This document shows, piece by piece, positions 10,482 to 39,770 of a stretch of DNA of 40,000 nucleotides. The position numbers were made by a program, and so were the translations under genes. The stretch comes from Pasteurellaceae bacterium LFhippo2. Lineage in GTDB: Bacteria; Pseudomonadota; Gammaproteobacteria; Enterobacterales; Pasteurellaceae. Where the stretch lies: contig LEKJ01000061.1 in assembly GCA_029852775.1 (NCBI GenBank), forward strand, positions 1-40,000, read 5' to 3'. The notes below the pieces were generated by a model, which had not been told where the DNA came from, did not search any database, and saw nothing but the letters and a program-made list of their open reading frames with translations. Positions within the stretch are counted from its first letter, which is position 1, and each line of letters opens with the position of its first letter.

Positions 10482-10492
10482 AATCATATTCC

Positions 10493-12223
10493 CTATTTCA
10501 ACGGCGAATTTTTACGCTCAATACCGTAACGTTCAATTTCTTTGTATTCAACGGTTTTTGATTTACCTTTACGTACATCAACAACGGTTACACGGTCGGT
10601 ACAAGAATAGCAAGGGTCAAGACTACCGATAATTAATGGTGCGTCAGACACCGTATTACCACGTAGCATATATCGTAAGATTGGCCAGTTAGCATAAGTA
10701 GCAGCTCGGCAACGCCAACGGTAAAGTTTTTGGTTATTTCCTAGCATTGACCAGTGAATATCTTCTCCTCTTGGAGCTTCTGTAATTCCCAGTGCAAAAC
10801 GGCCAGGTGTGTAATTGAAACCTTCAACAAGCAGATCTCCATTTGGTAAATTATCTACCATATAATCAATAATGTTCATTGTTTCAAAAACTTCATTAAT
10901 CCTTACAGCTACGCGCCCATATACATCTCCAGTATCTGTCCAATGAGCACTAAATGGCACATCACCATAACCAGAGAAAGGATGGACTTTACGCACATCT
11001 CGGCTAAAGCCACTTGCTCTAATTAATGGGCCTACTGGACTATGATCTCTTGCAATTTGGTGATCTAAGATACCAATGTCTCTAGTTCGTTGGTCGATAT
11101 TTGGGGTATTAAGTAGAATATCCGTTAAGACTTTAACTTCCTCACGAATCTCACCAATTAACTTCATACACTGTTCGCGTTGATGTTTCAAAATATCGCG
11201 GCGTACACCACCAATAAGGTTGATACCATAAGTTTTACGCGCACCAGTAAGAACTTCAGCAAGAGTCATCGATTTTTCACGTACTCGGAAAAATTGCATA
11301 AAACCTGTATCAAATCCAGTAAAGTGACTCGATAAACCTAAATTTAGTAAATGGCTATGTAAGCGTTCTACTTCAAGTAAAATTGCACGAATCCACTCTG
11401 CTCGTTTTGGAATTTTAATTCCAAGGGCATTTTCGACTGAATTTGCGTATGCTACGCTGTGTGTGAAACCACAGATCCCACAGATACGGTCAGCTAAGAA
11501 GGTTACTTGGTCGTAGTCCATTCTTGTTTCTGCAAGTTTTTCCATACCGCGATGAACATAAAACAGACGATAGTCAGCGTCAATAATGTCCTCTCCGTCT
11601 ACAAATAGACGGAAGTGACCTGGTTCGTCAGAAGTGATGTGCAGTGGACCTAGGGGGACTACTCTCGCATCACCTTTATCATTGATAAATTCGTAAGTTT
11701 CGGTTGCTGTTGTTGGATCAGGACGTAAACGATAATCCATTGCGTCTTTGCGTAATGGGTGAAGATCGTCTGGCCAATCGTCAGGTAATACTAAACGACG
11801 TTGATCTGGCAAACCCACTGCTTTTAAGCCGAACATATCAAACATTTCACGCTCAGCCCAAACAGCAGCTTTTACTTTTGGAGTTACAGAAGGAAACTCT
11901 TGAGAAACTGGATCAACTAACGCTTTTACAATTACGAAAGATTTCACAATACCTTCCATTGAAAGTACGTAGTACACGGCAAAGTTGCCATTAATACTGC
12001 GTTCATCATTAGCAAAGGCAAGTGGTAAAAAACCTTCATGTTGGTAATAAAGATACTCCACTACGTCAGGCAACATATTGGTTTTTATCGTAATGGTTAC
12101 CTGATTTTCCGTGGACCACTCTTCATCAAGAATAGTCTCTGGAAACTTCTGATTAACGGCCTCAATGTAGTTTCGACCTAAAGCACGGCTCAAATCAACC
12201 GATGTATTTTTTGTGAATTCCAT
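10493..12223 (-). CDS. hyfG: Hydrogenase-4 [NiFe] large subunit (NuoC-NuoD fusion) HyfG/HycE
   Basis: N-terminal NuoC-like and C-terminal NuoD-like halves. Ni-binding RICGICGFTHS near the middle and C-terminal DPCYSCTDRV, followed by about 30 aa that are the expected HycI-cleaved extension. Start at ATG 12223 (MEFTKN) has a GGAGGA SD. Confidence 0.92.
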   Translation of the reverse strand: MEFTKNTSVDLSRALGRNYIEAVNQKFPETILDEEWSTENQVTITIKTNMLPDVVEYLYYQHEGFLPLAFANDERSINGNFAVYYVLSMEGIVKSFVIVKALVDPVSQEFPSVTPKVKAAVWAEREMFDMFGLKAVGLPDQRRLVLPDDWPDDLHPLRKDAMDYRLRPDPTTATETYEFINDKGDARVVPLGPLHITSDEPGHFRLFVDGEDIIDADYRLFYVHRGMEKLAETRMDYDQVTFLADRICGICGFTHSVAYANSVENALGIKIPKRAEWIRAILLEVERLHSHLLNLGLSSHFTGFDTGFMQFFRVREKSMTLAEVLTGARKTYGINLIGGVRRDILKHQREQCMKLIGEIREEVKVLTDILLNTPNIDQRTRDIGILDHQIARDHSPVGPLIRASGFSRDVRKVHPFSGYGDVPFSAHWTDTGDVYGRVAVRINEVFETMNIIDYMVDNLPNGDLLVEGFNYTPGRFALGITEAPRGEDIHWSMLGNNQKLYRWRCRAATYANWPILRYMLRGNTVSDAPLIIGSLDPCYSCTDRVTVVDVRKGKSKTVEYKEIERYGIERKNSPLK

Positions 12224-12240
12224 TTTTTCCTCCTGTCTGC

Positions 12241-13770
12241 CTATTGACCTACATTTTGCCAAGGCAATAACAACATATCGTGGAAAGACACATTATCTTG
12301 CCCTAAAATGATACCGACCGAATTTTGCAATAATTGCATAATAGGCTCTGAAATATATAAACCAATGCTTAATAACAAAATAAGGTAAATTGCGATCACA
12401 GCCACAGATGATTTACTGATTTCACCTGCTTCAATGCCTTCGGTTGGTTTGCCTAATACGGTTTTTAACAACATTGTCGTTAATCCAGCAAGGGCAATGG
12501 TTAAGAAAATTAAGCAAAGGATAGCAAGCCAAGGTTTATCTGCACTGATTGCAGCCACAATGATGGCAAACTCACTCACAAACATACCAAATGGCGGAAC
12601 GCCCCCTAGTGCTAGTGCACCACCTGCAAATAACACAGCGGTAAACGGCATTGTTTTCCACAAACCACGTACGTAAGTGATATCTCTACTGTGGTATTTC
12701 AATAAAATATTACCTGATACGCAGAACAATAATGCTTTGGCAAGACTGTGTGTAATTGTATGTAATAAACCTGCAAACATACCAATTGGTCCACCAAGCC
12801 CAAATGCGAAACTGATTAACCCCATATTTTCGATACTGTGGTAAGCCAATTTACGTTTAATATCGTGTTGCATAATGATAAAGAAAGAGGCAATTCCCGT
12901 TGATAATAATCCGAAGACCAATAGTAATACTTGGGGATAATCAAATCCAACAGCCTTGCTTGTCAGAATAAAGTAACGTACAACAATTAGCATTGCACAA
13001 TTTAAAAGCACTGCGGAGAGAATCGCACTGGCAGGACTAGGAGCCTCACTATGCGCATCTGGTAACCAAGTATGCATTGGGAATAAACCACATTTTGTAC
13101 CAAAGCCAATTACAATAAATGCAAATGCAAGATACATAAGATTATGATTGAGGTTTACTGCTTGTTCATTGATGACTGACCAGAAGATAGCTTGAGACGG
13201 ATCCGCTAATACAGTATTTGCACTTGAGAATGTTAATACTGTTCCATATAAACCAAACGCTACACCTACAGAACAGATAATGATATATTTCCAAGCAGCT
13301 TCTAGAGATGTACGTCTACCGTATAAACCAACTAAGAAAGCTGGTGCTAATGTTGTTGCTTCAATCGCTACCCACATAAAAATAATATTGTTAGTTGTAG
13401 CTGCCAACATCATTGATCCAAAGAATAAGTGGAGAAAACCATGGTAAAAGCTAAAACTTCTTAAATCTATGTGTCCTTCTTTTAACTCAGTTTCCATATA
13501 TCCGATGGAATAAACACCTGCTAAAGTACCAACGATACCGATTAAGCCAACAAAAATTGCTGATAGGCTATCGATATAGACCCAATTACTCCAAGCAATT
13601 ACAACATTTTCATCAAGAACTTGATTAATCACAACAAAAGTCGCAAATGCCATCAATCCTAAACCAGTAATATGCAACGATTTGCAAAGTTGGAGATTTT
13701 GAAGTCTTGCTGCAACAAAGCAACCGATACCAACCACAAAGGGCATTAATAACAAAATATTAATCCACAT
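12241..13770 (-). CDS. hyfF: Hydrogenase-4 antiporter-like membrane subunit HyfF (NuoN/M-like)
   Basis: 509-aa polytopic protein with Mrp/NuoLMN-family motifs (WLPDAHSEAPSPASA, KRKLAYHSIENMG). Its position after hyfE matches the E. coli hyf order. Confidence 0.85.
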   Translation of the reverse strand: MWINILLLMPFVVGIGCFVAARLQNLQLCKSLHITGLGLMAFATFVVINQVLDENVVIAWSNWVYIDSLSAIFVGLIGIVGTLAGVYSIGYMETELKEGHIDLRSFSFYHGFLHLFFGSMMLAATTNNIIFMWVAIEATTLAPAFLVGLYGRRTSLEAAWKYIIICSVGVAFGLYGTVLTFSSANTVLADPSQAIFWSVINEQAVNLNHNLMYLAFAFIVIGFGTKCGLFPMHTWLPDAHSEAPSPASAILSAVLLNCAMLIVVRYFILTSKAVGFDYPQVLLLVFGLLSTGIASFFIIMQHDIKRKLAYHSIENMGLISFAFGLGGPIGMFAGLLHTITHSLAKALLFCVSGNILLKYHSRDITYVRGLWKTMPFTAVLFAGGALALGGVPPFGMFVSEFAIIVAAISADKPWLAILCLIFLTIALAGLTTMLLKTVLGKPTEGIEAGEISKSSVAVIAIYLILLLSIGLYISEPIMQLLQNSVGIILGQDNVSFHDMLLLPWQNVGQ

Positions 13771-13773
13771 AAA

Positions 13774-14412
13774 TTACCCCCGTAATTCCATTAATTGTTT
13801 CGCATCTAGCGTATGTAGGGCTCGGTAAATTTTATTTACAAGTACGACCATAATAATCACCGCAAAAACAGCATCTGTTGCAATACCAATCTCCACAAGT
13901 TCTGGAGCTTTATTAGCAAGCAATGCTAGGGTTAGATGTGAACCATTTTCCATTAAGCAGTAACCAAAAACTTGTTTCACAATATTACGTTGCGTCACAA
14001 TACAGGTTAAACCTAATAAGAAGTGCCCTAATGACACTGATAATGCAGGTTTGAGATTATCTGCAATCGGCAATTCTACTGAATCAGTCGCTAAGAAACT
14101 CACTACCACAATAGCTGCTACAATCGGAATCAACCACACATTATTCATCGTAGATGGTACAGTGCTTTCATCTAATTTACGCGTTGCATAAATCAAAAGT
14201 GCAGGTACTAATACCACTTTGGTAATAAAAGCTGAAACTGACCACATATAGAGTTCATGAGCGTCTAATGCACTAGCTAAATAGAAGAATAGCGATACCA
14301 GCACCAAAGATTGTAACGCATACAAACCTGCTGCACTTTTTGCAGTTTTCACTGCGATTACCGCAAGAGATGTGAGAATCAACAAGCCCGCTAAAGTATT
14401 AATCATTAACAT
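13774..14412 (-). CDS. hyfE: Hydrogenase-4 membrane subunit HyfE (NuoK-like repeat)
   Basis: 212 aa, hydrophobic. GYCLMENGSHL and PELVEIGIATDA match remembered HyfE. Confidence 0.85.
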   Translation of the reverse strand: MLMINTLAGLLILTSLAVIAVKTAKSAAGLYALQSLVLVSLFFYLASALDAHELYMWSVSAFITKVVLVPALLIYATRKLDESTVPSTMNNVWLIPIVAAIVVVSFLATDSVELPIADNLKPALSVSLGHFLLGLTCIVTQRNIVKQVFGYCLMENGSHLTLALLANKAPELVEIGIATDAVFAVIIMVVLVNKIYRALHTLDAKQLMELRG

Positions 14413-14424
14413 AATTCGTTCTCC

Positions 14425-15882
14425 CTACGCTAACCATGGCGTTTCAAGCCAATAAGCCGCGATAAAACTTGAACAAACGGACATAATCATCAAGATCACT
14501 AACACAATATTCATTGAAAGTGTCAGTGGCTGTGCATTTTCCACATCTTCTGATGGTTTACCTACCACACATTGTCCGAATTTATAGAGCAACCAAACAA
14601 AAGTTGCTGTACTTTCAATTAATGCGATTACCATCAACCATGTGATCCAACTATGCTGTTGGCCAAGCTCAAAACCTGCTGCAAAAAGTGGGAACTTACT
14701 AAAGAAACCATTAAATGGTGGCACACCAGAAATTGCGAGAGCTGCAACCCCAAAACCGGCCCCCAATAGTGGCATTTTACGCATAATGCCTTGTAATCTT
14801 GGCATTGAACGCGTACCCGTTGCATAAGCAAGAGAACCTGCAACTAAGAAGAATAGACTTTTCGCGAAAGCGTGGTTGAAGATATAGGCAATGGCAGCGA
14901 TCAATGCAAGTTTAGAGCCCATTGCAAAGAGAGATAAACCAATGAAGATATAAGCGAGTTGAGTAATGGTGGAATAAGCAAGTAACCGTTTAAGATCGGT
15001 TTGTGGCAAGTACATAAGGAAGCCATAAACTAAGGTTATCATTGCCATAATAATACCAACTTCACCGACAATTTCTGGTACTTCACCTGCTGATATAACT
15101 GCTCGAGCAAAGATATATACCCCAACTTTTACCATAGATGCTGCGTGTAGATACGCACTCACAGGGGTTGGTGCTTCCATCGCATTTGGTAGCCAAATTT
15201 GCATTGGGAATTGAGCCGATTTACCCCAAGCGGCAAACATAACTCCAAATAACACAATCATTTTTGAAGTTGGATCGAGTTTTTCTAATGCGGTTAACTC
15301 AAACGTACCTGATTGGCTAAATAAATACGCCGCAGCAAGATATAAACCAATGGCACCAACATGGGTGATAATCAATGCTTTCATTGCAGATGCTTGCGCT
15401 TTTGGTGTTTGATAATAGCTAATCAAAGACCAAGAACACGCCCCTGTAATTTCAAAGAACAGTAACTGCCCCACTAAGGTTGAGGAATATACCAAGCCAG
15501 CCATTGCCCCAACGAAAATGAGTAAAAATGCGTAGAAGCGTGGAAGTGGTAAGTGGGAATGTTCTTTATTTTTGGTTGTTAAATATCCTTCAGAATAAAG
15601 AATTATTAAAAAGCCAAGAGCCACTACAACAAAACCGATTAGGGTACTTACGGCGTCAAAGGTAAAGCTGAAGATCGTCGTGTTGCCAAATTGAACTAAA
15701 CTAAAGTTAAGTTGTGCTTGTCCGGATTGTTGCCACAAAAATGCTACAGCAACGGTTCCTAATGTGGCAACAGCAGCAATAATTGTCGCAATTTTTGGAA
15801 ACATCTCTTCGTTTTTCACAAACCCTACGAGAAACGCCCCCACAAACGGCAATATAATTGTAAATAGAGCTAAATTATCCAT
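14425..15882 (-). CDS. hyfD: Hydrogenase-4 antiporter-like membrane subunit HyfD (NuoM/N-like)
   Basis: MDNLALFTIILPFVGA start. WLPNAMEAPTPVSAYLHAASMVKVGVY and GVPPFNGFFSKFPLFAAGF match HyfD. Confidence 0.85.
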   Translation of the reverse strand: MDNLALFTIILPFVGAFLVGFVKNEEMFPKIATIIAAVATLGTVAVAFLWQQSGQAQLNFSLVQFGNTTIFSFTFDAVSTLIGFVVVALGFLIILYSEGYLTTKNKEHSHLPLPRFYAFLLIFVGAMAGLVYSSTLVGQLLFFEITGACSWSLISYYQTPKAQASAMKALIITHVGAIGLYLAAAYLFSQSGTFELTALEKLDPTSKMIVLFGVMFAAWGKSAQFPMQIWLPNAMEAPTPVSAYLHAASMVKVGVYIFARAVISAGEVPEIVGEVGIIMAMITLVYGFLMYLPQTDLKRLLAYSTITQLAYIFIGLSLFAMGSKLALIAAIAYIFNHAFAKSLFFLVAGSLAYATGTRSMPRLQGIMRKMPLLGAGFGVAALAISGVPPFNGFFSKFPLFAAGFELGQQHSWITWLMVIALIESTATFVWLLYKFGQCVVGKPSEDVENAQPLTLSMNIVLVILMIMSVCSSFIAAYWLETPWLA

Positions 15883-15892
15883 TTTTTCCTCC

Positions 15893-16855
15893 TTACAATC
15901 CGATTAAGTAAAAGACAAAGGCAAGTACAGACACACCGAAACCAACACTTGTTAAACGTCCTGCCAACATAAATCGGACACGAGAGAGAGTATTTTCAAA
16001 TACACAAGCTGCCACAAATACAATGAACAATTTAATGAAGAATGTAATAATTCCCCAAAGAATTGAACCAAATGTTAGTTCAGCTGCAGCACCAAACGGT
16101 AATAACACACTGACAAATACTGATGCGACAACCATTGATTTCAAGCTTAATCCAACTTTAATAAGTGCAAATGCTGGACCTGAATACTCTGTTAATGGGC
16201 CTTCTTGTAACTCTTGCTCTGCTTCTGCCAAGTCGAACGGAATTTTTCCCATTTCCACGAAAATAGCAAACATTGCGGCTACCATCGCAACGAGAGTTGC
16301 TACAGGGTAATTCCAAGATTGTGTTGCTAATGCACTTGAGATCATACCGAAGTTGGTTGAACCAGCAGCTAATGCGATAACAAGCAGAGAAAGCATTAAA
16401 ACAGGTTCCACTAATACCCCTAGAGTCACCTCACGGCTTGCCCCCAAACCTGAAAAAGAGCTGTTACTGTCAAGGCCTGCAATAGAGAAGAAGAAACGGA
16501 ATAAGGCGAAAAGATAAATTGCGGTAATCAAATCACCACCTGCACCGAATGGAGATGCCAAGGTGAACATTGGTAAGCTCATTGCCACAACAAGAACGGT
16601 GCTAATCAACACATAAGGCATCACTTTTGAGACAAAGCTCGCATTGTCAGGCAGAATGTTTTGGCGTTTCATTAATTTCGCAATATCGCGATAATCTTGT
16701 AAAACACCAGGTCCTCGACGAGATTGCACTCTCGCACGAATCATTCTTGAAATACCCGAAAATAAAGGAGCAAGAGCAAGCAGAATTAACGCCTGAATAA
16801 TCCCTAGTAAAAACATACCTGCTGATGTTGCAATTTCTGAAGGTAAATTAATCAT
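15893..16855 (-). CDS. hyfC: Hydrogenase-4 membrane subunit HyfC/HycD (NuoH-like)
   Basis: 320 aa. RMIRARVQSRRGPGVLQDYRDI and PFDLAEAEQELQEGPLTEYSG are NuoH/HycD signatures. Confidence 0.9.
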   Translation of the reverse strand: MINLPSEIATSAGMFLLGIIQALILLALAPLFSGISRMIRARVQSRRGPGVLQDYRDIAKLMKRQNILPDNASFVSKVMPYVLISTVLVVAMSLPMFTLASPFGAGGDLITAIYLFALFRFFFSIAGLDSNSSFSGLGASREVTLGVLVEPVLMLSLLVIALAAGSTNFGMISSALATQSWNYPVATLVAMVAAMFAIFVEMGKIPFDLAEAEQELQEGPLTEYSGPAFALIKVGLSLKSMVVASVFVSVLLPFGAAAELTFGSILWGIITFFIKLFIVFVAACVFENTLSRVRFMLAGRLTSVGFGVSVLAFVFYLIGL

Positions 16856-16864
16856 AACAGCCTC

Positions 16865-18883
16865 CTACATTGAACCAGCAACCGCTAATAACACAACAAG
16901 GGCAATCGCGAAATAAACGCAATACACTCGGAAATCACCACCTTGTAACCAGCTTAATTTCTCTGAAATCCAAGGGATAAAACGTGCTATTGGCATTGTT
17001 ACTTTATCTTCCCAAATCGGTTCGACTTCAGTTGCACCTTTAATTGTTTTATCAATCGCTTTATAGCTTAATGGTGCAGGGTCAAATGTTTTGCGGATGG
17101 TATAAAGTGGTTTGAACATAATACGAAGCGGTTTGGTAAAACTACCTGCGCTTGTAGCCATTTCAGGTTCATAAGCGTAACCACACGCCCATGGATTGCC
17201 TTTTGAATTTGCTTCGAGACGATTCGATTTCGTCATCACATAATAGCCAAATGGTACAGCGAAGAAGGCAATTAGCATAATTGCTACCATTGATGTAGAA
17301 AGCGCGGTATTTGGTTCTGAGTTTGCAACCACTACCCCGTTTTGTGCTAATTCAAAGCCTGCTAAACCAGAAAGAGACGTTGATACATTTGCAATAATTG
17401 GTGTGATAACTGTTGCGCCAATACCTAATAAAACACAACACACAGCAAGAATTGCCATTGCAGCGACCATTGGTTTTGGCACTTCTCTTGCATTGGCTGC
17501 TTTTTCACTACGTGGTGCACCGCCAAAACTAATACCATATACTTTCACAAAACAGAGTGCAGCTAACGCACCAGTTAAAGCAAGCATAATGATTGCAACG
17601 GCACCTAAAATTTTTAACGCAATGCCACCATCTTGAGTTAGGCTAAAGAGAGATTGATAGGTAAACCATTCACTCACAAATCCATTGAAAGGAGGAAGTG
17701 CAGAAATTGCCATGGTACCGATCAAGAAACACAAAGCGGTATATGGCATTAATTTACCAAGTCCCCCCATATGATCCATATCTTTGGTGTGTAAACGATA
17801 CATTACAGAACCAGCACCTAAGAATAACAATCCTTTGAACACGGCATGGTTAAGTAAGTGATATAAGCCACCAAGTAAACCAACAATAGCAAGCACTGGA
17901 TTTTTAATAGCAATACCAATCATGCCGCAGCCCACGCCCATCATAATAATGCCGATATTTTCAACGGTGTGGTAGGCTAACAAACGTTTAATGTCATGCT
18001 CTGCTAACGCATAAAGTACGCCAAGCACAGAAGATACTGCACCAAATCCAAGCACAACAACACCAAACCAAATACTATTTGCGCCTAAAAGATCGATCCC
18101 AACTTTAATGATCCCGAAAATACCAATTTTAACCATTACACCAGACATCAATGCAGAAGCATGAGACGGTGCCGCAGGGTGAGCTTTCGGAAGCCAGCCA
18201 TGTAATGGAATCATCCCTGCTTTAGCACCAAAGCCAAGGAATGCAAGAATAAATACAACAAAACTTAACGCTGGAGATAACTCTGTTTGGCGGTAGGCTG
18301 AAAATTCAAAGCTACCTGCGTAGCAGTAGAAAATGAAGAAAGAGATCATAATGAGCACAGAACCTGCGTGGGCAATAAAGAAATAAAGTAGCCCAGCGTT
18401 CGTTGCTTCATCATCTTGTTCGGTTAACACTAAGAAATAGGACGCCAAAGACATCATTTCAAAGAAAACCAGAAAATAAAATGCACTGTCAGTTGTTGCT
18501 AGAGCAACCATAGAGCCTATGAATAGATTCATAAAAAAGCCCATAGAGCCAGCACCTTTGCCTTTATACTCTTTAACATAGGCAAAGGAATAAATTGCAG
18601 TAACAACTACTAAGAGAGAAATTACGCAGACCATAAACGCGGCTAGTCCATCAATTCGCATAGAATATGGTGCAAATGAAAATGGGGTCTGAAATAATGC
18701 AGTCGCGGTTTCGTTGCTGATAAGGACAGGGGCGGCAGCTATAATGCCTAATGCTCCACCAAGGATACTGGTCACGCCAGATATATTGATTGAAAGCTGT
18801 TCATTCTTACTAATACAAAGCGAAAGAAATGCGCCGATGACATAAATCAACAAGGTCATAATGAGTAAGGGTATCGCACTCAT
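16865..18883 (-). CDS. hyfB: Hydrogenase-4 antiporter-like membrane subunit HyfB (NuoL-like)
   Basis: Start chosen at ATG 18883 (MSAIPLL) with GGAG 7 nt upstream, giving 672 aa (my recollection of the E. coli HyfB length). The track start at 18907 is a TTG. WLPKAHPAAPSHASALMSGVMVK and KRLLAYHTVENIG motifs are present. Confidence 0.88.
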   Translation of the reverse strand: MSAIPLLIMTLLIYVIGAFLSLCISKNEQLSINISGVTSILGGALGIIAAAPVLISNETATALFQTPFSFAPYSMRIDGLAAFMVCVISLLVVVTAIYSFAYVKEYKGKGAGSMGFFMNLFIGSMVALATTDSAFYFLVFFEMMSLASYFLVLTEQDDEATNAGLLYFFIAHAGSVLIMISFFIFYCYAGSFEFSAYRQTELSPALSFVVFILAFLGFGAKAGMIPLHGWLPKAHPAAPSHASALMSGVMVKIGIFGIIKVGIDLLGANSIWFGVVVLGFGAVSSVLGVLYALAEHDIKRLLAYHTVENIGIIMMGVGCGMIGIAIKNPVLAIVGLLGGLYHLLNHAVFKGLLFLGAGSVMYRLHTKDMDHMGGLGKLMPYTALCFLIGTMAISALPPFNGFVSEWFTYQSLFSLTQDGGIALKILGAVAIIMLALTGALAALCFVKVYGISFGGAPRSEKAANAREVPKPMVAAMAILAVCCVLLGIGATVITPIIANVSTSLSGLAGFELAQNGVVVANSEPNTALSTSMVAIMLIAFFAVPFGYYVMTKSNRLEANSKGNPWACGYAYEPEMATSAGSFTKPLRIMFKPLYTIRKTFDPAPLSYKAIDKTIKGATEVEPIWEDKVTMPIARFIPWISEKLSWLQGGDFRVYCVYFAIALVVLLAVAGSM

Positions 18884-18914
18884 AATGTACTCCATTTGAT
18901 TATTCAATTAAATT

Positions 18915-20034: not shown

Positions 20035-22323
20035 ATGGCAAGGATGAGATTTATCGAACTAAGAATCAAAGGTAAAGTTCAGGGAGTTGGATTTAGACCA
20101 TTTGTTTGGCTATTAGCAAAAGATCTGCAACTCAAAGGAGACGTCAATAATGATGGACAAGGTGTTTTAGTTCGCTTGCAGTCTCCAAGTGATACACAGC
20201 TTACTCAATTCCTTCTGGATTTAAATGCAAAGCTACCGCCACTTGCTAAAATTACTGATATTCAGCAATCTGAAACCTTTCTTACTGATTTTCCTACATT
20301 TAATGAATTTGTAATTCGTGAAAGCGAAAATAGTCTAATGGATACCCAAATCGTGCCAGATGCTGCAACTTGTCCAGCGTGCCTTGCAGAATTATTCACC
20401 CCGAGTAATCGCCGTTTCCACTACCCTTTTACAAATTGTACTCACTGTGGCCCTCGCTTTACCATTATTTATGCGATTCCCTATGATCGCAAAAATACGT
20501 CAATGGCAAATTTCAAATTCTGCCCCGAATGTCATAAAGAATATAAAGATCCTGCAGATCGTCGATTTCACGCACAGCCTAATGCTTGCCCAGTTTGTGG
20601 GCCTCACATTTGGTTACAAGATAAAACAAATCAACTTGCAACACTCGAAACCGCATTAACTCAAAGCGCACAGCTACTTGTTCAGGGCAATATAATTGCA
20701 GTGAAAGGATTAGGTGGATTTCATTTAGCGTGCGATGCAACAAATGCTAATTCTGTAAATTTATTACGTAAGCGAAAATACCGTCCCACAAAACCTCTTG
20801 CCGTAATGGTTCCTAATTTAACTTATTTGGTTGATTTAACAGAACAAGAAAAACAATTATTGACTAGTAGCGCAGCGCCAATAGTGTTATTAAAAAAGCA
20901 TAAAGCCCCAACATTGTGTGCTGAAATTGCCCCTAACTTATCAGAAATTGGTGTAATGTTACCTAGTAATCCATTGCAACATTTGCTACTAAATGAGATA
21001 AATCGACCGCTTGTAATGACTTCTGCAAATCCAAGTGGTGAGCCTCCCGTTTTAGATAACCAAACTGCTATGGATAAGCTACATTCTCTTGCGGATTTTT
21101 ACCTTTTCCATAATAGAGATATTTTGCAACGCGCTGATGATAGCTTAGTGCGAGCAGCTTTTGATGGCATAGAAACACTACGAAGAGCAAGGGGATATGT
21201 ACCTGATGAGATCAGCCTTGATCTTGATAACCAACAGCCAATTTTGGCATTAGGTTCTGATCTTAAAAATACATTTTGTCTACTCAAAGGTAATAATGCT
21301 GTCGTTAGCCAACATATTGGTGATACCTCAAACCTACAAGTACAAACACAATTACAGGATAATATCCAACTCTTTCAACAAATTTATCAATTTAAACCAA
21401 ATCATATTGTTGTGGATGCTCATTCAGGCTATTTTAGTTCTCAAGTTGGTAGACAACTTGCTATGCAACAGCAGTTACAGCTCCATCAAGTACTTCATCA
21501 TCATTCCCACATTGCAGCAGTCTTAGCAGAACATCATTGTGATGAAAAAGTAATTGGCATTGCATTAGATGGTATCGGAATGGGAGAAAATGGCCAACTT
21601 TGGGGGGGAGAATGTTTATTAATTAATAAATATCATTGCCAACATTTGGGGGGACTGCCTCCTGTAGCGTTGGCTGGCGGGGATTTAGCTGCTAAGCAAC
21701 CTTGGCGAAATTGGCTTGCGCATATTCAACAATTTGTTCCAAACTGGCAAGAGCTTGCGACAAAAACGTTAAAAGAATTTGAGTGGCAACTACTTGCTCG
21801 GGCAATTGAACAGAAGATAAATTCACCCGTAATCTCTTCTGCGGGTAGATTTTTTGATGCGGTTGCATATTCTTTGGGCATTACGCCAAAGCAGTTAAGC
21901 TGGGAAGGGGAAGCCGCCTGTCATTTAGAAACATTGGCTAGTCAATCTAAATGGGTAGAAAAAAATATCCAAGATATTCAGAAAGAGCTAGATGTAACAA
22001 TGCCGATCCATAATGATCAGTTTGATCTTGCTATTTTCTGGCAATCTTGGCTTAACCTAGATGACTCAATTGAGAATAAAGCATTCGCTTTTCACTTTAC
22101 TTTGGCTACAGCCTTTGCTGGAATGGCCAAAATCAATGCAAAAAAATACAACTGTCAGACAATTGTACTTTCAGGTGGGGTTATGCATAACCAATTATTA
22201 CGTCGATTATTGAAAGAAAGTCTTTCCGAATTTAACGTTCTAAGTGGTCAACAATATCCAATGAATGATGGCGGATTAAGTTTAGGACAAAGTTGGATTA
22301 TTGGACAATATCTAGAGATGTAA
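20035..22323 (+). CDS. hypF: Carbamoyltransferase HypF
   Basis: Acylphosphatase-like N-domain (KGKVQGVGFRPFVW), two zinc fingers (CPACLAEL...CTHCGPRF; CPECHKEY...CPVCGP), and YrdC-like and Kae1-like domains. The alternative start ATG 20044 has better SD spacing. Confidence 0.93.
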   Translation: MARMRFIELRIKGKVQGVGFRPFVWLLAKDLQLKGDVNNDGQGVLVRLQSPSDTQLTQFLLDLNAKLPPLAKITDIQQSETFLTDFPTFNEFVIRESENSLMDTQIVPDAATCPACLAELFTPSNRRFHYPFTNCTHCGPRFTIIYAIPYDRKNTSMANFKFCPECHKEYKDPADRRFHAQPNACPVCGPHIWLQDKTNQLATLETALTQSAQLLVQGNIIAVKGLGGFHLACDATNANSVNLLRKRKYRPTKPLAVMVPNLTYLVDLTEQEKQLLTSSAAPIVLLKKHKAPTLCAEIAPNLSEIGVMLPSNPLQHLLLNEINRPLVMTSANPSGEPPVLDNQTAMDKLHSLADFYLFHNRDILQRADDSLVRAAFDGIETLRRARGYVPDEISLDLDNQQPILALGSDLKNTFCLLKGNNAVVSQHIGDTSNLQVQTQLQDNIQLFQQIYQFKPNHIVVDAHSGYFSSQVGRQLAMQQQLQLHQVLHHHSHIAAVLAEHHCDEKVIGIALDGIGMGENGQLWGGECLLINKYHCQHLGGLPPVALAGGDLAAKQPWRNWLAHIQQFVPNWQELATKTLKEFEWQLLARAIEQKINSPVISSAGRFFDAVAYSLGITPKQLSWEGEAACHLETLASQSKWVEKNIQDIQKELDVTMPIHNDQFDLAIFWQSWLNLDDSIENKAFAFHFTLATAFAGMAKINAKKYNCQTIVLSGGVMHNQLLRRLLKESLSEFNVLSGQQYPMNDGGLSLGQSWIIGQYLEM
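21006..21014 (-). repeat. Apl-type USS (ACAAGCGGT, extended ACAAGCGGTC)
   Basis: Exact 9-mer on the minus strand, inside hypF. Confidence 0.7.
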
Positions 22324-22932
22324 TACATTATCAGCTAATTGATGGCAAAACCCGTCATCGTGAGAAGCAATCAACATTGGTAATGATAAATCTTTTAATA
22401 AGCTAACTAATTTGGTTTTATTCTTCGAATCAAGCCCATTAGTTGGCTCATCAAGTAGTAGCATTTTAGGTTGCATTGCTAATACGCCAGCAAGTGCTGT
22501 AAAATTTTTCTCACCCCCAGATAAAAGATTCACTGGCCGACTTTTCAAATGTTCAATACCTAGCTTTTGTAACTGTTCTAAAGCTATCTCGTAGGCTCGT
22601 TCTCTACTCTTCCCTTGGTTTAAACATCCAAAAGCGACATCATCTAATACTGTTGGGCCAAAAAGTTGATCTTCCGCATTTTGGAAACAAATCCCAACGG
22701 GACCTCGTAATTTTTCAAAGTCCTGTTCTGTTTTACATTGATTTCCAAACCATTCAATATTTCCAGTATGAATAGGAACAAAACCCAATAATGCTAATAA
22801 GAGAGTCGATTTCCCCGTACCAATATCTCCTTGCAAAAAAAAATGTTGTTGCTCAGAAATTGTAAAGTTTAAGTTAGAAATGACCGCTTGTTGGTTGCGG
22901 TATAAGGTTAAATCAGAAACGTTTAAAATCAT
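22312..22932 (-). CDS. cbiO: ECF-type Ni/Co transporter ATPase component (NikO/CbiO)
   Basis: Walker A GDIGTGKST, ABC signature LSGGEK, and Walker B LLLDEP. The 3' end overlaps the hypF 3' end by 12 nt (convergent). Confidence 0.85.
   Translation of the reverse strand: MILNVSDLTLYRNQQAVISNLNFTISEQQHFFLQGDIGTGKSTLLLALLGFVPIHTGNIEWFGNQCKTEQDFEKLRGPVGICFQNAEDQLFGPTVLDDVAFGCLNQGKSRERAYEIALEQLQKLGIEHLKSRPVNLLSGGEKNFTALAGVLAMQPKMLLLDEPTNGLDSKNKTKLVSLLKDLSLPMLIASHDDGFCHQLADNVLHL
22883..22891 (-). repeat. Apl-type USS (ACAAGCGGTC)
   Basis: Exact 9-mer on the minus strand, inside cbiO. Confidence 0.7.
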
Positions 22933-22933
22933 T

Positions 22934-23533
22934 TTAAAATCTAAAGCCTCTTGCTTTCATTGCTCTTTCTGCAGACTCTGCTTTTAACATAGCGTGAATC
23001 AACAATAATGCTACTCGTTGCGAATATACCTTCATTGTATAAAAATTACATTTAGGCTGAAAACCTCTAGCCTTCATTGCTATATCCATTTTATGGTTTA
23101 ACTCACCAAGCAGTGAAATATAGCGGACAGTTAAAATAAATAGGTGTTTGAGTTTTTTAGGTAATGGCAGTTCTGCTATAGCTTGGACCAGAATAGTATC
23201 TGTAACGTGATGCATAAACAGCCAAATCGACATTACAATTAAATTCATTCTTAGTGTAATAAGTAATGCGAGCTCAGCGCCATACATATTGAGTTCGATA
23301 CCATCAGACCCAATTTTCCAACTTAATGTTGCCCAGACCAAAACAGAAAAAATATTGAATTGAAACCAACGTTTCATCAAGTGTTTAGGTTGATGACTAT
23401 GCAGAAAAACAACCAACAACACGACTAATAAACTTAATCCCAATAGTAAAGCGATTGATTGGATATAACTGATTAGCAAACCCGATAAAAAAGCATAAAT
23501 CAAACGGTGATGCGGTTTAAGAAATCCTTTCAT
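22934..23533 (-). CDS. cbiQ: ECF transporter transmembrane (T) component NikQ/CbiQ
   Basis: 199-aa polytopic membrane protein with two ARG motifs near its C-terminus (AMKARGFQP, AMKARGFRF). Sits between cbiM and cbiO. Confidence 0.8.
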   Translation of the reverse strand: MKGFLKPHHRLIYAFLSGLLISYIQSIALLLGLSLLVVLLVVFLHSHQPKHLMKRWFQFNIFSVLVWATLSWKIGSDGIELNMYGAELALLITLRMNLIVMSIWLFMHHVTDTILVQAIAELPLPKKLKHLFILTVRYISLLGELNHKMDIAMKARGFQPKCNFYTMKVYSQRVALLLIHAMLKAESAERAMKARGFRF

Positions 23534-24134
23534 TTTTGCATAATACCTCTGGCAACATTTTAGATAATGTTAATAAAACACCAACACTGATCAGACTATC
23601 AATTACAAATACAGGTAGGTGTGAAACTAACAGCAAACCAATTAAATCGGTATAAGCTTCACCATTAAATATTAAGATTATTGACGCAATTAGGGCCGCT
23701 CCCCCGACACCAATAATTCCAGATAAAGTGCCCGCTAAAATTAATATAGGACGTTGTAAGCCTCGTTTTAAAATGGGAGAAACGATATAGTGAACCGCTA
23801 AGGCAGGAAGAGCCATAACACAAAGATTTATGCCCAATACAGAAAATCCACCAAAAGAAAATAACAACGCTTGAAGTATTAAAGCCACTAAAAATGCAGG
23901 AAACACTGACCAACCAAGTAACAATCCAGCTATTCCATTCAAAATTAGGTGCACACTACCAATACCAACTGGAATATGAATTGTACTTGCTACGAAAAAT
24001 GCGGATGCTAGCAATGCAGTAAGTGAAAGGTGCTCGTAATTCATTTTCTTTAGTCCAATAGCCACACCTACAACCGCAAATGTTGCTCCAACTAATAATG
24101 TTGAACTTTGTAATACGCCTTCCGACAAGTGCAT
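23517..24134 (-). CDS. cbiM: ECF transporter substrate-capture (S) component NikM/CbiM
   Basis: N-terminus MHLSEGVL is the conserved metal-binding Met-His N-terminus of CbiM/NikM. 205 aa, polytopic. Confidence 0.85.
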   Translation of the reverse strand: MHLSEGVLQSSTLLVGATFAVVGVAIGLKKMNYEHLSLTALLASAFFVASTIHIPVGIGSVHLILNGIAGLLLGWSVFPAFLVALILQALLFSFGGFSVLGINLCVMALPALAVHYIVSPILKRGLQRPILILAGTLSGIIGVGGAALIASIILIFNGEAYTDLIGLLLVSHLPVFVIDSLISVGVLLTLSKMLPEVLCKNERIS

Positions 24135-24595
24135 TATTTATCCCTTTTAGTTCTCAAAAACAATACAAGCCCAAAGATACCGAAGATGTAGCCAATACCG
24201 CCAATTACATCTCGAATGTATATTTTGTTCTTCAGTTGCTCAATCTCTTCGCGTAGTAATTGCAAATCCGTTGAAGTGCTACTTGCTGTCGCAATTTTAT
24301 GTACTTGCGTTTCTGCTCTATGCCCTTCCATACCTTCAATGATCACTGAAAAAGTACCATCTTGAGTCAAAGGTAAATGAAATCGGCCTTCCTTATCTGT
24401 TTTTCCATAAACTATAGGCTCACTTTCACCTTGTTTTACTACTTCAACGTAGGTTTCTACAGCAGGATGTTGATCTGAATAATAAGCTTTTCCTGAAACC
24501 TCATTACCGTCATACTGTGCGCTAATAAATAACCCGTGAGCCGATATATTTGCAGAAAAGAGGAGAAAAATGACCGCTTGTAATAATTTTTTCAT
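24134..24595 (-). CDS. NikL/CbiL-type accessory protein (signal peptide, periplasmic beta-rich domain, C-terminal TM anchor)
   Basis: Start at ATG 24595 (MKKLLQAVIFLLFSANISAHG), one nt after the nikK stop. C-terminal hydrophobic helix VIGGIGYIFGIFGLVLFL. Its position in the K-L-M-Q-O order matches the nikKLMQO/cbiKLMQO layout described for Actinobacillus. Confidence 0.65.
   Translation of the reverse strand: MKKLLQAVIFLLFSANISAHGLFISAQYDGNEVSGKAYYSDQHPAVETYVEVVKQGESEPIVYGKTDKEGRFHLPLTQDGTFSVIIEGMEGHRAETQVHKIATASSTSTDLQLLREEIEQLKNKIYIRDVIGGIGYIFGIFGLVLFLRTKRDK
24573..24581 (-). repeat. Apl-type USS (ACAAGCGGTC)
   Basis: Exact 9-mer on the minus strand, inside the nikL signal-peptide region. 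Confidence 0.7.
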
Positions 24596-24596
24596 A

Positions 24597-25301
24597 TCAT
24601 TTTGCTTCGAATGACAGGATATATTCATAAGAACGATCTGTATAGTCTGGATGATTATCTACCTTCTCTTCAAATTCTGCCCAGACTTTATTAATCCCTG
24701 CTTTTACAGCAAATTTTGCAATTCCTTGATCATTACTTAAAACAAACGGATCATCTTCACCAGTTCCAACTTTAATATCTTTGACTGGTTTATCATTATG
24801 CAGAACTAAAATATCCAATTGTTTTCCAGCTATAGGCATATCTAAAGGGACAAGCTCATAAGCTTGATTATGGGGTTGTGTTGATTCTTTATTCCAATGA
24901 ATAATTGCTTTACCTAGTTTCATCGGATTTATCGAAAATTCAGCAGAAGGGGCTTCTTTCTTTGTTTTTTCAACATATTTACCACTCGGTAATTTAGACC
25001 AAACACCATTATCAAATTCTAAAAAAACAATATCGCCATTTACTGTAATTTCAGCTTCACCTTTGCCATTTTCTAACTCTTTGAAATGTGGTTTGATAAT
25101 TTGAGTTGTCCCATTCACAAGTTCTTGTATTCGAATCAGTTTATGTTGAGAATAGGCTTCTGTCTCTTTATGACCGAACTTAACAATATAATAGGAAGAA
25201 GCTTGATTTTCAGTAGATTTTTCAAGCCACACATTGTGGGCTTGAGAACAAAATGAAATAAAAAGTAAGGAAAAGATAGAACCTATTTTGACTGTTTTCA
25301 T
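24597..25301 (-). CDS. NikK/CbiK-type periplasmic metal-binding component (DUF4198-like)
   Basis: Start at ATG 25301 (MKTVKIGSIFSLLFISFCSQAHNVWLE) with a signal peptide followed by mature HN..W, and a GAGGGA SD. It is the first gene of the five-gene transporter operon. Confidence 0.65.
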   Translation of the reverse strand: MKTVKIGSIFSLLFISFCSQAHNVWLEKSTENQASSYYIVKFGHKETEAYSQHKLIRIQELVNGTTQIIKPHFKELENGKGEAEITVNGDIVFLEFDNGVWSKLPSGKYVEKTKKEAPSAEFSINPMKLGKAIIHWNKESTQPHNQAYELVPLDMPIAGKQLDILVLHNDKPVKDIKVGTGEDDPFVLSNDQGIAKFAVKAGINKVWAEFEEKVDNHPDYTDRSYEYILSFEAK

Positions 25302-33375: not shown

Positions 33376-33513
33376 TAAAAAATCCTATCCAAAATAATAA
33401 GGGACGAATTTTATCACAATTCGATAGCGATGACGACGAACCATTTGTCGATAAGGTCGATACAGTGTAGAATGTCGTGTTATTTTTATATTAAAACGAG
33501 AATATCAGAAACT

Positions 33514-35193: not shown

Positions 35194-35206
35194 CTGTATT
35201 ATTTAA

Positions 35207-35237
35207 AGGTATTGTTTTATCACAATACCTTTTTTTT
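35207..35237 (+). terminator. Rho-independent terminator of glnS
   Basis: Perfect 9-bp stem AGGTATTGT / ACAATACCT with a 6-nt loop, followed by a T-run of 7-8. Confidence 0.75.
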
Positions 35238-35262
35238 ATCTGTATTTTAGTAAGGAATCTAT

Positions 35263-36657
35263 ATGACTAATACTCAAAGACCTTATTGGTTTGTTGGCGC
35301 ATCTTATGGTGGAAATGATGACCAAACCGATCTATTTGTTACTCAAGGCATCTGGAATCATGGGAAAGATGATATAAATACTTGTAATAGTGTTTTAAAT
35401 ATGAAAGTCGGGGATAAAATAGCAATTAAGTCAGTTTTTACACAAAAATATGATTTACCTTTTGATAACCCCAAAAACCATACATACTCTGTTCTCAGAA
35501 TTAAAGCTATAGGTACGATAGTTGGAGAAAGTCTTGATAATGGCTACTCTATCAAGGTAGATTGGCAGAAAGATTTTGAACCTAAAAACTGGTATCACTA
35601 TGTATATCAAGGAACTATTTGGCTAGTTAATCCTAATCGAACAGATAGCGAATCTTGGAAAGCAAAAGCGTTAATTGATTTTACATTTAATAATAAACCG
35701 CAAGATTTTAGTTTATTTACTAATAATGGAAGTATAGCTGATAATGAAGATGTAGCTTTTACAACTACAGTAAAAACTATAGATTACACCATTGCAAATA
35801 TTCAACAAGATGGCTGCTTTTTAGAACAGAAGCAACTTGAAGATATTCTATTTCACCTGAAATTTAAAAAAAATCTTATTTTACAAGGAGCGCCAGGTAC
35901 AGGAAAAACTTGGCTTGCAAAAAGACTTGCTTATGCAATTATTCAGCAAAAGGACTCAAGTAAAGTCAAAGCAGTACAATTTCATCCTAATCTCTCTTAT
36001 GAAGATTTTGTTCGTGGCTGGCGACCAAACGGAGATGGTAAACTATCTCTTCAGGATGGCTCACTGATGGAAATAACTAAAAAGGCACTTAATGATCCTA
36101 ATACAAATTATGTTCTTGTTATTGAAGAAATTAATCGTGGCAATCCTGCTCAAATATTTGGCGAAATGCTAACATTATTAGAATCAGATAAGCGTAATCC
36201 TGAAAGCGCTCTGGAATTAGCATATAAAGTTAATGAATATGAACGTATCTACCTACCCAATAATTTATATATCATTGGCACAATGAATATTGCAGATCGC
36301 TCATTAGCTTTAGTAGACTTTGCATTGCGACGACGTTTTTCTTTTGTTGAATTGGAACCAAATTTTAGTAATAAATGGCAAAATTGGCTTAAAGAAAAAT
36401 TTCACTTTGATGATAATTTTATCAAGAAGATTCACTCAAGAATTCTTCAAGTAAATGAACAAATCTGTCAAGAATTAGGAGATCAATTTAGAATTGGGCA
36501 CAGCTATTTCACGCCGCCAGAAAATTGTGAAATTCAGCCTGAGATATGGTTTAAACAAGTGGTTCAGAATGAAATTATCCCTTTACTGAATGAATATTGG
36601 TTTGATAGTCCTGAGAAGGCTCAACAGGTCGCAAATTTATTAATAGAGAATAGATAA
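35263..36657 (+). CDS. mcrB: McrB-family AAA+ GTPase subunit of a type IV (modification-dependent) restriction system, with a non-canonical N-terminal domain
   Basis: Walker A GAPGTGKT (35887-35910), VLVIEEINRGNPAQIFGE, the McrB signature IIGTMNIADRSLALVDFALRRRFSF, and FRIGHSYF. Residues from about 173 onward align in my memory with the E. coli McrB GTPase module. Residues 1 to about 135 do not resemble the E. coli McrB N-domain. Confidence 0.88.
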   Translation: MTNTQRPYWFVGASYGGNDDQTDLFVTQGIWNHGKDDINTCNSVLNMKVGDKIAIKSVFTQKYDLPFDNPKNHTYSVLRIKAIGTIVGESLDNGYSIKVDWQKDFEPKNWYHYVYQGTIWLVNPNRTDSESWKAKALIDFTFNNKPQDFSLFTNNGSIADNEDVAFTTTVKTIDYTIANIQQDGCFLEQKQLEDILFHLKFKKNLILQGAPGTGKTWLAKRLAYAIIQQKDSSKVKAVQFHPNLSYEDFVRGWRPNGDGKLSLQDGSLMEITKKALNDPNTNYVLVIEEINRGNPAQIFGEMLTLLESDKRNPESALELAYKVNEYERIYLPNNLYIIGTMNIADRSLALVDFALRRRFSFVELEPNFSNKWQNWLKEKFHFDDNFIKKIHSRILQVNEQICQELGDQFRIGHSYFTPPENCEIQPEIWFKQVVQNEIIPLLNEYWFDSPEKAQQVANLLIENR

Positions 36658-37712
36658 TGTCTGCCCAAATTCCTGTTCAAAATATTTGGCTTTTGATGTT
36701 GTATGCATCAGAACTATTCCAAACGATACAAGAAAATCAAAATGTTACTATTGAAGATAATCCTGACAACATTCCTGATTTAGTTGCTGAAATTCTCTGT
36801 TACCAAGTAGAAAAACGTCTTAAACGTCAATTAAATTATGGGTATCAATATAAATCAGCACAACTAACAAGAGTTCGTGGGCGTATTAATTTACGAGAAA
36901 CAGAAACTAAAAAGTTACTCAGCAAAGGACGAATTGCTTGTAAATTTGAAGAACTGAATTGGAATACATCACGAAATTGTTTTGTAAAAATAGCTCTGGA
37001 GAAATTAAGTAAAATCGTTTCTAATCCGCTTTCTCACCGTTGTCGATTACTAACTAACAAATTTAATCAATTGGGTATTACTGGAGACATTCGAAATTAT
37101 AACCCAATGAGAGATACTTTCTGTCGCAATGATATCATTGATAAAGAAATGGTTATTACAGCTCACTTAGCCTTACAATTAGCATTACCGACTGAGCAAA
37201 ATGGCAAGTATTTATTATTAAAGCCTGATAATAATATTGATTGGTTACGTAAGTTGTATGAAAAGGCTATCGCAGGGTTTTATCAGGTACTACTGTCTTC
37301 ACAAGGTTGGGAAATAAAAACTGGAAAACGTTCAAGATGGCAAGTGTCGAAACAAAGTAGCGGAATCTTAGATATTTTACCGACAATGCAGACAGATATT
37401 GAATTAATCAATCTGAAGCAACAAAAGCACATTATTATTGATACTAAATTCAATGAAATCCTTATTTCGGGTAATTATAGAGAAAAAAGTTTACGCAGTG
37501 GCTATGTTTACCAAATGTATGCCTATTTACATTCTCAACAGAGAGACTGTTCAGCTATTGGAATTATTCTACATCCTATGTTTGGTGAACCACTAAGTGA
37601 ATATGCTATTATTCAACAGCATAAAATGCAATTTTCAACGGTTAACTTACAAGCTACAGCGATTGAAATCCGTCAACAGCTGTTAGATATTATTAACAAT
37701 GCCTTAAGCTAG
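36657..37712 (+). CDS. mcrC: McrC-family PD-(D/E)xK endonuclease subunit
   Basis: N-terminus IPVQNIWLLMLYA (compare E. coli McrC IPVRNIYYMLTYA), the catalytic region LPTMQTDIEL...IIIDTKF (D247, D262-x-K264; nt 37395-37448), and YVYQMYAYL. The ATG overlaps the mcrB TAA (TAATG). Confidence 0.88.
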   Translation: MSAQIPVQNIWLLMLYASELFQTIQENQNVTIEDNPDNIPDLVAEILCYQVEKRLKRQLNYGYQYKSAQLTRVRGRINLRETETKKLLSKGRIACKFEELNWNTSRNCFVKIALEKLSKIVSNPLSHRCRLLTNKFNQLGITGDIRNYNPMRDTFCRNDIIDKEMVITAHLALQLALPTEQNGKYLLLKPDNNIDWLRKLYEKAIAGFYQVLLSSQGWEIKTGKRSRWQVSKQSSGILDILPTMQTDIELINLKQQKHIIIDTKFNEILISGNYREKSLRSGYVYQMYAYLHSQQRDCSAIGIILHPMFGEPLSEYAIIQQHKMQFSTVNLQATAIEIRQQLLDIINNALS

Positions 37713-37727
37713 TTTGCAAAAGATATG

Positions 37728-37757
37728 AAAAAACCGACCGGTTGTGGTCGGTTTTTT
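37728..37757. terminator. Bidirectional rho-independent terminator between mcrC and argA
   Basis: A6, CCGACC (37734-37739), 6-nt loop, GGTCGG (37746-37751), T6. It serves both convergent genes. Confidence 0.8.
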
Positions 37758-39200: not shown

Positions 39201-39770
39201 CTATCTATATGTTGCAAGGAGCTTATCTAATAATTTACTCGTTGGTGGGGTTGATAAATCGTGAGTGATTTCCTTGATAGTTTCTAACTCAAGTTCCCAC
39301 CACCTTAATTGTAATAATTTATCAATTATTTCCTGCTCAAATCTAAATTTAAGCGATTTTGCCGGATTTCCGCCTACAATCTCATATGGCTTCACATCTT
39401 TGACGATATGAGAATTGGCAGCTAATACAGCGCCATCACCAATTGTCACTCCAGACATAATCGTCACGCCACTTCCGATCCACACATCATTTCCAATAAT
39501 AATGTCACCATTAGAAGTGGGGTGCCCAACTATTCCTTGTCCACCTAACTCTTCTTGGAATATATGACCAAATGGATAAGTTGTAATCCAATCAATGCGA
39601 TGATTACCGCCTAGAAAAATAGAAATATTACGAGCAATCGAACAAAATGCGCCTATTTGTAATGTTGCGCCTTCATTCCATTGATGAATGGATAGGTTCT
39701 CAATACCGTATGTATATCGACCTATACTGACTTTGCTATTACCAACGACTCCTATTCGAATGCCCGACAT
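39201..39770 (-). CDS. Hexapeptide-repeat xenobiotic acetyltransferase family protein (CatB/Vat-like)
   Basis: IGAFCSIA, GGNHRIDWITTYPF (catalytic His context), IGNDVWIGSGVTIMSGVTIGDGAVLAANSHIVKDVKPYEIVGGNPAK, and the C-terminal LLQLRWWE, as in CatB/Vat-type XAT enzymes. Confidence 0.8.
   Translation of the reverse strand: MSGIRIGVVGNSKVSIGRYTYGIENLSIHQWNEGATLQIGAFCSIARNISIFLGGNHRIDWITTYPFGHIFQEELGGQGIVGHPTSNGDIIIGNDVWIGSGVTIMSGVTIGDGAVLAANSHIVKDVKPYEIVGGNPAKSLKFRFEQEIIDKLLQLRWWELELETIKEITHDLSTPPTSKLLDKLLATYR

Follow-up and report, generated by a model that had tools for sequence, protein, structure and literature searches.

The McrBC system of Escherichia coli K-12 (EcoKMcrBC; structures 6hz4, 6ut6, and 7vsr) is encoded by mcrB followed by mcrC, and the sensor of its McrB, a DUF3578/ADAM domain, flips out 5-methylcytosine (5mC) (PMC3424535). 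In the McrBC system of the archaeon Thermococcus gammatolerans (6p0g, 6ut3-6ut8) the reader fused to the McrB GTPase is PUA-like (EVE/YTH). Fusions of an EVE domain to McrB, which have been catalogued by Bell, Wolf, and Koonin, are described as the most common EVE fusions in prokaryotes; they are paired with McrC and often lie in defence islands (PMC7641849, PMC11090510). Here we describe a gene pair, in the same order mcrB then mcrC, from a 40,000-nucleotide stretch of the genome of Pasteurellaceae bacterium LFhippo2 (contig LEKJ01000061.1, positions 1 to 40,000 of the forward strand; this whole stretch is referred to as the window). The pair very probably represents an intact McrBC type IV restriction system, with a sensor that is predicted to be PUA-like, too.

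The gene pair and its catalytic cores

The mcrB-family gene (35263..36657, + strand) is an open reading frame (ORF) of 464 amino acids, directly downstream of which the mcrC gene (36657..37712, +) encodes a protein of 351 amino acids in which a McrB-binding region at the N-terminus precedes a PD-(D/E)xK nuclease. The two ORFs share a TAATG stop/start overlap (36655..36659, +), in which the stop codon TAA (36655-36657) and the start codon ATG (36657-36659) have one base in common, exactly at the coordinates given in a first-pass annotation of the window that a model had made from the letters. The overlap implies that mcrB and mcrC may be translationally coupled. A Shine-Dalgarno-like AAGGA can be read from the sequence at 35252..35256 (+), 6 nt 5′ of the mcrB start codon. 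Together the two genes form one operon bracketed by terminators. The mcrB product is 100% identical to an entry deposited in GenBank for the same bacterium as "hypothetical protein A1D22_02075", a gene which deserves the name of McrB-family GTPase.

The identities proposed for the two proteins in the first-pass annotation, a McrB GTPase and a McrC nuclease with canonical cores, are upheld by profile searches as well as by alignment with the E. coli McrB and McrC structures, and every motif quoted there was located in the translations. Among the Pfam profiles, AAA_5 matches McrB (E 3.1e-27, residues 204-359) and McrBC PF10117 matches McrC (E 3.7e-20). PADLOC, which had been named as a further means of recognition, would not call the system, McrC matching none of its models and McrB only generic "REase_II" models.

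The AAA+ GTPase motor with its lid comprises amino acids 168-464 of McrB (35764..36654, +), as delimited by the match to E. coli McrB, by AAA_5, and by PF28529 McrB_lid, the last being precomputed for the identical GenBank protein. Residues 168-461 align to E. coli McrB (6hz4, 6ut6, 7vsr) with E 1e-73, the McrB from T. gammatolerans being more distant (E 1.4e-39). The Walker A motif GAPGTGKT (aa 209-216; 35887..35910, +) is found opposite GPPGVGKT of the E. coli protein, and the Walker B region VIEEINRGN (aa 286-294; 36118..36144, +) opposite IIDEINRAN, E288-E289 thus taking the place of D-E. Since MNIADRS (aa 341-347; 36283..36303, +) stands opposite MNTADRS, its N342-I-A-D345 (36286..36297, +) is the NxxD signature of GTP specificity, and N342 and D345 are invariant across 15 McrB homologs. 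NxxD is found in the GTP-using, DNA-targeting McrB clades, whereas the CoCoNuT clade has NxD (PMC11090510). The arginine cluster ALRRRFSF (aa 354-361; 36322..36345, +) has the same eight residues opposite it in E. coli, and R356-R358 are invariant in the family. It should be noted that the NCBIfam model for McrB, NF008457, covers residues 167-461 only (E 2.7e-76) and reaches 257 bits against an equivalog cut-off of 637, because the sensor domain differs from that of E. coli McrB.

For McrC the corresponding NCBIfam model, NF007277, is matched above its cut-off (345.6 versus 338 bits, E 3e-103) over profile positions 5-351 of 353. The alignment with E. coli McrC (6hz4_M, E 5e-17) extends over the whole protein (residues 4-348). 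The catalytic motif of the nuclease (37392..37451, +) is composed of D247 in TDIEL (aa 246-250) and D262-T-K264 in IIIDTKF (aa 259-265). These three residues stand opposite D244, D257, and K259 of E. coli McrC, positions which were counted from the printed alignment.

The sensor domain of McrB

The first-pass annotation had seen in the N-terminal sensor the non-canonical part of the system. Indeed, residues 1-166 of McrB match nothing by sequence: there was no meaningful hit in Pfam (E <= 10), NCBIfam, or the PDB sequences (phmmer), and the DUF3578/ADAM sensor of the E. coli type was not matched even at E <= 10. DUF3048_C, a sub-threshold candidate for this region (E 0.024), was dismissed. The sensor domain proper is assigned to amino acids 1-155 (35263..35727, +), for which a PUA fold of the EVE/YTH type is predicted, and it is joined to the motor by a flexible linker (aa 156-167; 35728..35763, +), which corresponds to gap-rich alignment columns and varies in length among homologs.

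Judged from the alignments, the N-terminal region is a genuine conserved domain. McrB has 14 full-length relatives (468-488 aa) that are 52-56% identical to it over the whole protein, the nearest one after the identical entry being 52-53% identical, and they come from unrelated taxa. The N-terminal residues that are invariant in these 14 include W9, F10, D20, Q21, W31, K56, P66, F67, W101, W110, W120, and W132; among 53 diverse members of the sensor family W9, F25, W31, K56, P66, F67, W101, and W110 are near-invariant. A larger set of relatives was collected with a profile of 390 positions that included AAA+ columns and hence brought up mainly McrB motors; the sensor was then located in them by hmmsearch. 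With a local hidden Markov model it was found in 260 of the 277 McrB relatives collected, a count which includes 133 of the 150 best representatives of 50%-identity clusters. The sensor family is thus widespread and well conserved, and it is without a curated model in Pfam or NCBIfam.

A search with a profile of the sensor only returned nothing but McrB fragments and proteins named McrB. No fusion of the sensor to another effector was found in this search, which thus gives no support to a modular reuse of the domain. This does not mean that the architectures are uniform. The sensor may stand alone at the N-terminus, as in the protein from LFhippo2, or may be followed by a middle domain of approximately 270 amino acids, DUF8425 (PF28527), which results in proteins of approximately 735 amino acids. 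In other proteins it is preceded by Mrr_N (PF14338) or by a DpnI_C-like winged helix (PF17726), and occasionally there are two tandem copies (examples of varied architecture are the relatives P0018, P0112, P0176, P0186, and P0328 and the loci L081 and L083). Several database entries of the sensor family are short or truncated, and one (P0127) is fused to an IS200-type transposase; such truncated entries and those disrupted by insertion sequences (IS) suggest frequent inactivation.

The fold of the sensor was predicted with AlphaFold2 for residues 1-166 from an alignment of 58 sequences. The model has a mean predicted local distance difference test score (pLDDT) of 86.1 and a predicted template modelling score (pTM) of 0.82; residues 156-166 are disordered (pLDDT < 50) and correspond to the linker. 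Its elements follow one another in the order beta (8-12), alpha (22-28), beta (30-32), alpha (38-45), five strands, and a helix, so that the topology predicted by the AlphaFold model, beta-alpha-beta-alpha-beta5-alpha, is that of EVE domains. When the model was compared with the PDB by Foldseek, all of the top 16 matches were EVE, YTH, or THYN1 domains. The best was MJECL36 (2p5d; E 2e-4, probability 1.0); PH1033, YTHDC1, YTHDC2, CPSF30, Rpa0253, Atu2648, and 2eve were also among the 16, as were the N-terminal domain of T. gammatolerans McrB on m5C DNA (6p0g) and THYN1 on 5mC DNA (5j3e). On the strength of this model we consider with moderate confidence that the McrB sensor is EVE/YTH-like.

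Modified RNA is the ligand of many EVE and YTH domains, and the best Foldseek matches include the readers of N6-methyladenine (m6A) in RNA YTHDC1, YTHDC2, and CPSF30. The sensor could therefore be thought to read a modified RNA base and the system to be directed against RNA, as has been predicted for the CoCoNuTs among the relatives of McrBC (PMC11090510). We regard this as highly improbable. The GTPase motif is NxxD and not the NxD of the CoCoNuTs; Pfam and NCBIfam scans of both proteins revealed no coiled-coil, HEPN, CSD, or other RNA-linked domain; the motor and the nuclease are close to those of the DNA-cleaving McrBC from E. coli; and the EVE-like domains of McrB (6p0g) and THYN1 (5j3e) bind modified DNA.

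If the sensor is a reader of modified DNA, its ligand has to be considered. E. coli McrB recognizes 5mC, 5-hydroxymethylcytosine (5hmC), and N4-methylcytosine (4mC), and for the T. gammatolerans protein m6A and 5mC are reported. Pasteurellaceae usually carry Dam. Since a reader of m6A in GATC would be toxic to its own host if the latter has Dam, a cytosine modification of the 5mC, 5hmC, or 4mC type seems somewhat more likely as the target than m6A of the Dam type. It is also conceivable, if rather unlikely, that the large McrB-only sensor family is a divergent EVE-like clade with a ligand that differs from the known McrB specificities; with the same reserve a hypermodified pyrimidine, a 7-deazaguanine derivative, or m6A outside Dam sites can be named as examples. 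If this were true, the 464-aa McrB, which is devoid of DUF8425, would be a handy minimal model for a new restriction specificity. The specificity of the sensor, once determined, would add one reader to the toolbox of modification-dependent enzymes.

Genomic setting and the rest of the window

The mcrBC pair is flanked upstream by glnS (TIGR00440, 984 bits) and downstream by argA (NF003641, 655 bits), which is located on the minus strand, in convergent orientation to mcrC. The spacers are 69 bp on the glnS side and 55 bp on the argA side, and each contains one terminator hairpin. The intrinsic terminator of glnS (35205..35232, +) has a stem of 11 bp with arms that are 100% complementary and a loop of 6 nt, followed by a T-run; its folding energy is −11.7 kcal/mol (z = −5.1), and 30 nt separate it from the mcrB start codon. 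The second one (37728..37757, both strands) is bidirectional and common to mcrC and argA, with −18.3 kcal/mol on one strand and −17.3 kcal/mol on the other (z = −4.7 and −5.6). None of 200 shuffled sequences reached a comparable stability, be it for the glnS hairpin or for either strand of the second one. The close bracketing by rho-independent terminators described in the first-pass annotation is therefore real. The glnS ORF begins with ATG 33430, whereas homologs and TIGR00440 align only from approximately residue 29-36; going by these alignments, the region 33430-33513 (+) would precede the gene, the true start of which is probably ATG 33514. With this start the divergent uvrB-glnS spacer is approximately 140 bp.

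Only 30 nt (35233-35262) lie between the glnS terminator and the start of mcrB, and a plus-strand scan revealed no sigma-70-like promoter in them. Transcription of mcrBC may occur by read-through of the AT-rich glnS terminator or from a promoter that such a simple scan misses. The lack of a recognisable promoter could also be taken as a sign that the pair is a decayed, silent, or co-opted remnant without restriction activity, all the more as IS-disrupted or truncated fragments of the sensor/McrB family are common in databases. Co-option of McrB homologs is known from elsewhere, for example that of the McrB-derived cell-division factor PcdA of Staphylococcus aureus (PMC10602043). We nevertheless think such a remnant quite improbable, since both ORFs are full length and align with their homologs from end to end, all catalytic motifs of McrB and McrC are intact, the translationally coupled mcrC partner has been kept, and mcrB is preceded by a good Shine-Dalgarno sequence.

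The absence of further genes from the operon bears on another possibility, namely that the locus encodes a sequence-specific, modification-independent McrBC-like enzyme of the LlaJI/LlaI/BsuMI type, against which a cognate methyltransferase would protect the host. Some McrBC homologs are indeed non-canonical and possess site-specific DNA-binding modules (bioRxiv 10.64898/2026.08.31.748284, PMC1459862). However, the locus has two genes instead of three; neither a methyltransferase nor a separate R1 gene is present in the terminator-bracketed unit or in the neighbours glnS and argA; and the predicted fold of the sensor resembles that of modified-base readers (EVE/YTH) rather than other DNA-binding folds. 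There is consequently very little to be said for a site-specific enzyme, and a modification-dependent type IV system is preferred.

In GC content mcrB (0.328) and mcrC (0.330) are below the value for the remaining 34 ORFs of the window with 120 or more amino acids (0.386 ± 0.026), and at third codon positions the GC content is 0.21-0.24 in mcrBC versus 0.28-0.36 in the neighbours. The low values are suggestive but not unique, since the AT content of two further ORFs of the window is just as high. For comparison, 8 kb around glnS were inspected in six Pasteurellaceae with GlnS 82-89% identical to that of LFhippo2 (Ursidibacter, Actinobacillus ureae, Mannheimia haemolytica, Haemophilus parainfluenzae, Aggregatibacter, and strain Pebbles2). 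Within this distance mcrB, mcrC, and argA were absent from all six, and the neighbours of glnS differed in each of them. The pair is therefore accessory, and universal conservation next to glnS, which had been considered as an argument against an accessory nature, is ruled out. This does not mean that a clean insertion can be demonstrated, because synteny around glnS is not conserved and hence there is no empty site for comparison. The first-pass statement that the module is inserted between glnS and argA holds as far as adjacency is concerned; an insertion event is not shown by the six glnS loci, in which both argA and mcrBC are missing.

Flanking direct repeats, an integrase, or a transposase were not found at the mcrBC locus, and a search of plasmids brought up no close relative at the DNA level, the best match being 68% identical over 19% of the query. 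Elsewhere, genes of the same McrB family are found with an mcrC gene in defence islands, for example in Methylovulum miyakonense beside a type I S subunit and an AAA_15/AAA_21 protein, where the pair is also close to F-type transfer genes (TraN, TraU), and in Geobacter beside Hachiman HamA and a helicase. Most likely, mcrBC has been acquired horizontally.

The view that the window has no other recognisable defence system holds for the ORFs tested, which gave no PADLOC matches; the run of ORFs at 8133-18895 was not scanned and was judged by its neighbours. This run looks like a hyc/hyf-like hydrogenase operon. The other genes of the window are housekeeping genes, namely ackA, hypE/D/B/A, fdhF, hypF, cbiM/Q/O, accD, uvrB, and the genes for a DUF1919 protein, a Mur-ligase (folC-like), an aminotransferase, EamA and major facilitator superfamily transporters, and a hexapeptide acetyltransferase. 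Rfam at gathering threshold revealed no RNA family in the window and no selenocysteine insertion sequence (SECIS).

Several of these genes merit a remark. The gene fdhF for formate dehydrogenase H (5838-7991, − strand) is interrupted by an in-frame TGA (7574-7572; CCARV-[TGA]-HGPSVAG) and hence shows up as two ORFs. As this TGA is at the classical site of selenocysteine, the two ORFs make up a single gene for a selenoprotein rather than a pseudogene. The metal transporter of the energy-coupling factor type with cbiM/cbiQ/cbiO genes and a DUF4198 protein (GC 0.329) at 22312-25301 (−) adjoins hypF and the hydrogenase genes and probably serves nickel uptake for hydrogenase. Between ackA and the hyp genes lies the gene for a DUF1919 protein (1437-2123, +; 228 aa, Pfam E 2e-84), which lacks a name in NCBIfam. 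The GC content of this gene, 0.313, is the lowest of the window, and the gene may be another acquired one. The hexapeptide-repeat acetyltransferase (39201-39770, −) resembles the Vat (streptogramin A) and CatB acetyltransferases (E 4e-43). It reaches 147 bits against a resistance cut-off of 300 and therefore does not receive a resistance-gene label.

Proposed mechanism and comparison with known McrBC systems

By homology to McrBC from E. coli and T. gammatolerans, and drawing on the structural and biochemical work published on them (PMC7680126, PMC6344862), the system from LFhippo2 can be envisaged to work as follows. The EVE/YTH-like domain of McrB (aa 1-155) would bind DNA with a modified base, which, at a guess, might be held in a pocket of W9, W31, W101, and W110, and would thereby tether a McrB hexamer to the DNA. 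The hexamer would be assembled from the GTP-bound AAA+ domains. The N-terminal region of McrC would enter the McrB ring and stimulate GTP hydrolysis, and the motor would translocate DNA. Finally, the PD-(D/E)xK site of McrC (D247, D262, K264) would cut both strands once translocating complexes stall or collide. A type IV system of this kind could hinder the transformation of the LFhippo2 isolate by methylated DNA.

Several points weigh against the picture of an acquired, active McrBC system with an EVE/YTH-like sensor. The similarity in fold is modest (template modelling scores of 0.3-0.48 and a best E of only 2e-4), and the structure compared is itself a prediction. At the sequence level the Pfam EVE profile PF01878 is reached by only 2 of 53 sensor family members, with a best E of 0.055, and the McrB of the window gives no match to it at E <= 10; likewise, the profile of the sensor family brings up no EVE or YTH entry among the PDB sequences. 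That conserved tryptophans line a base pocket is guesswork, and we know of no member of the sensor family with a known biochemical activity. To this has to be added that the scan upstream of mcrB found no promoter and that the insertion is deduced from composition and distribution only.

The motor from LFhippo2 shows homology to that of E. coli McrBC from one end to the other, and both contain Walker A, Walker B, the NxxD signature, and the arginine cluster. The two McrC proteins are colinear and D/D/K is conserved, yet their pairwise similarity is distant (E 5e-17). The sensors are unrelated: DUF3578/ADAM in E. coli, and in LFhippo2 the domain that is predicted to be EVE/YTH-like. If this prediction is right, the system shares with that of T. 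gammatolerans a PUA-like reader fused to the McrB GTPase. However, 6p0g ranks only 13th among the Foldseek matches, with weak scores (E 0.045, template modelling score 0.31), and there is no detectable sequence similarity between the two sensors. Moreover, the T. gammatolerans system is archaeal, and the motor from LFhippo2 is much closer to that of E. coli.

The sensor also differs from that of the EVE-McrB fusions catalogued so far in that it is invisible to PF01878 and belongs to a separate conserved family, which in the samples fetched was confined to McrB. Within this family, the 735-aa McrB relatives from Geobacter anodireducens (P0112) and Ectothiorhodospira (P0093) have a McrC partner and are approximately 50% identical in the sensor and 57-63% identical in the motor, but carry the extra DUF8425 of approximately 270 amino acids between the two. 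DUF8425 is absent from the LFhippo2 protein and from its relatives of 470-490 amino acids, for example that of Methylovulum (P0016). McrBC relatives of the CoCoNuT type have NxD, coiled-coil inserts, tandem nucleases, and domains linked to RNA, whereas the LFhippo2 system has NxxD, only AAA_5 and McrBC domains, and a McrC of 351 amino acids. The three-gene LlaJI/LlaI/BsuMI type has a separate R1 gene and methyltransferases, in contrast to the two-gene operon described here.

Sensor swapping on a conserved McrBC core is an established pattern, and the findings will therefore not surprise the specialist. The LFhippo2 system is a standard McrBC core with one of many alternative PUA-like sensors.

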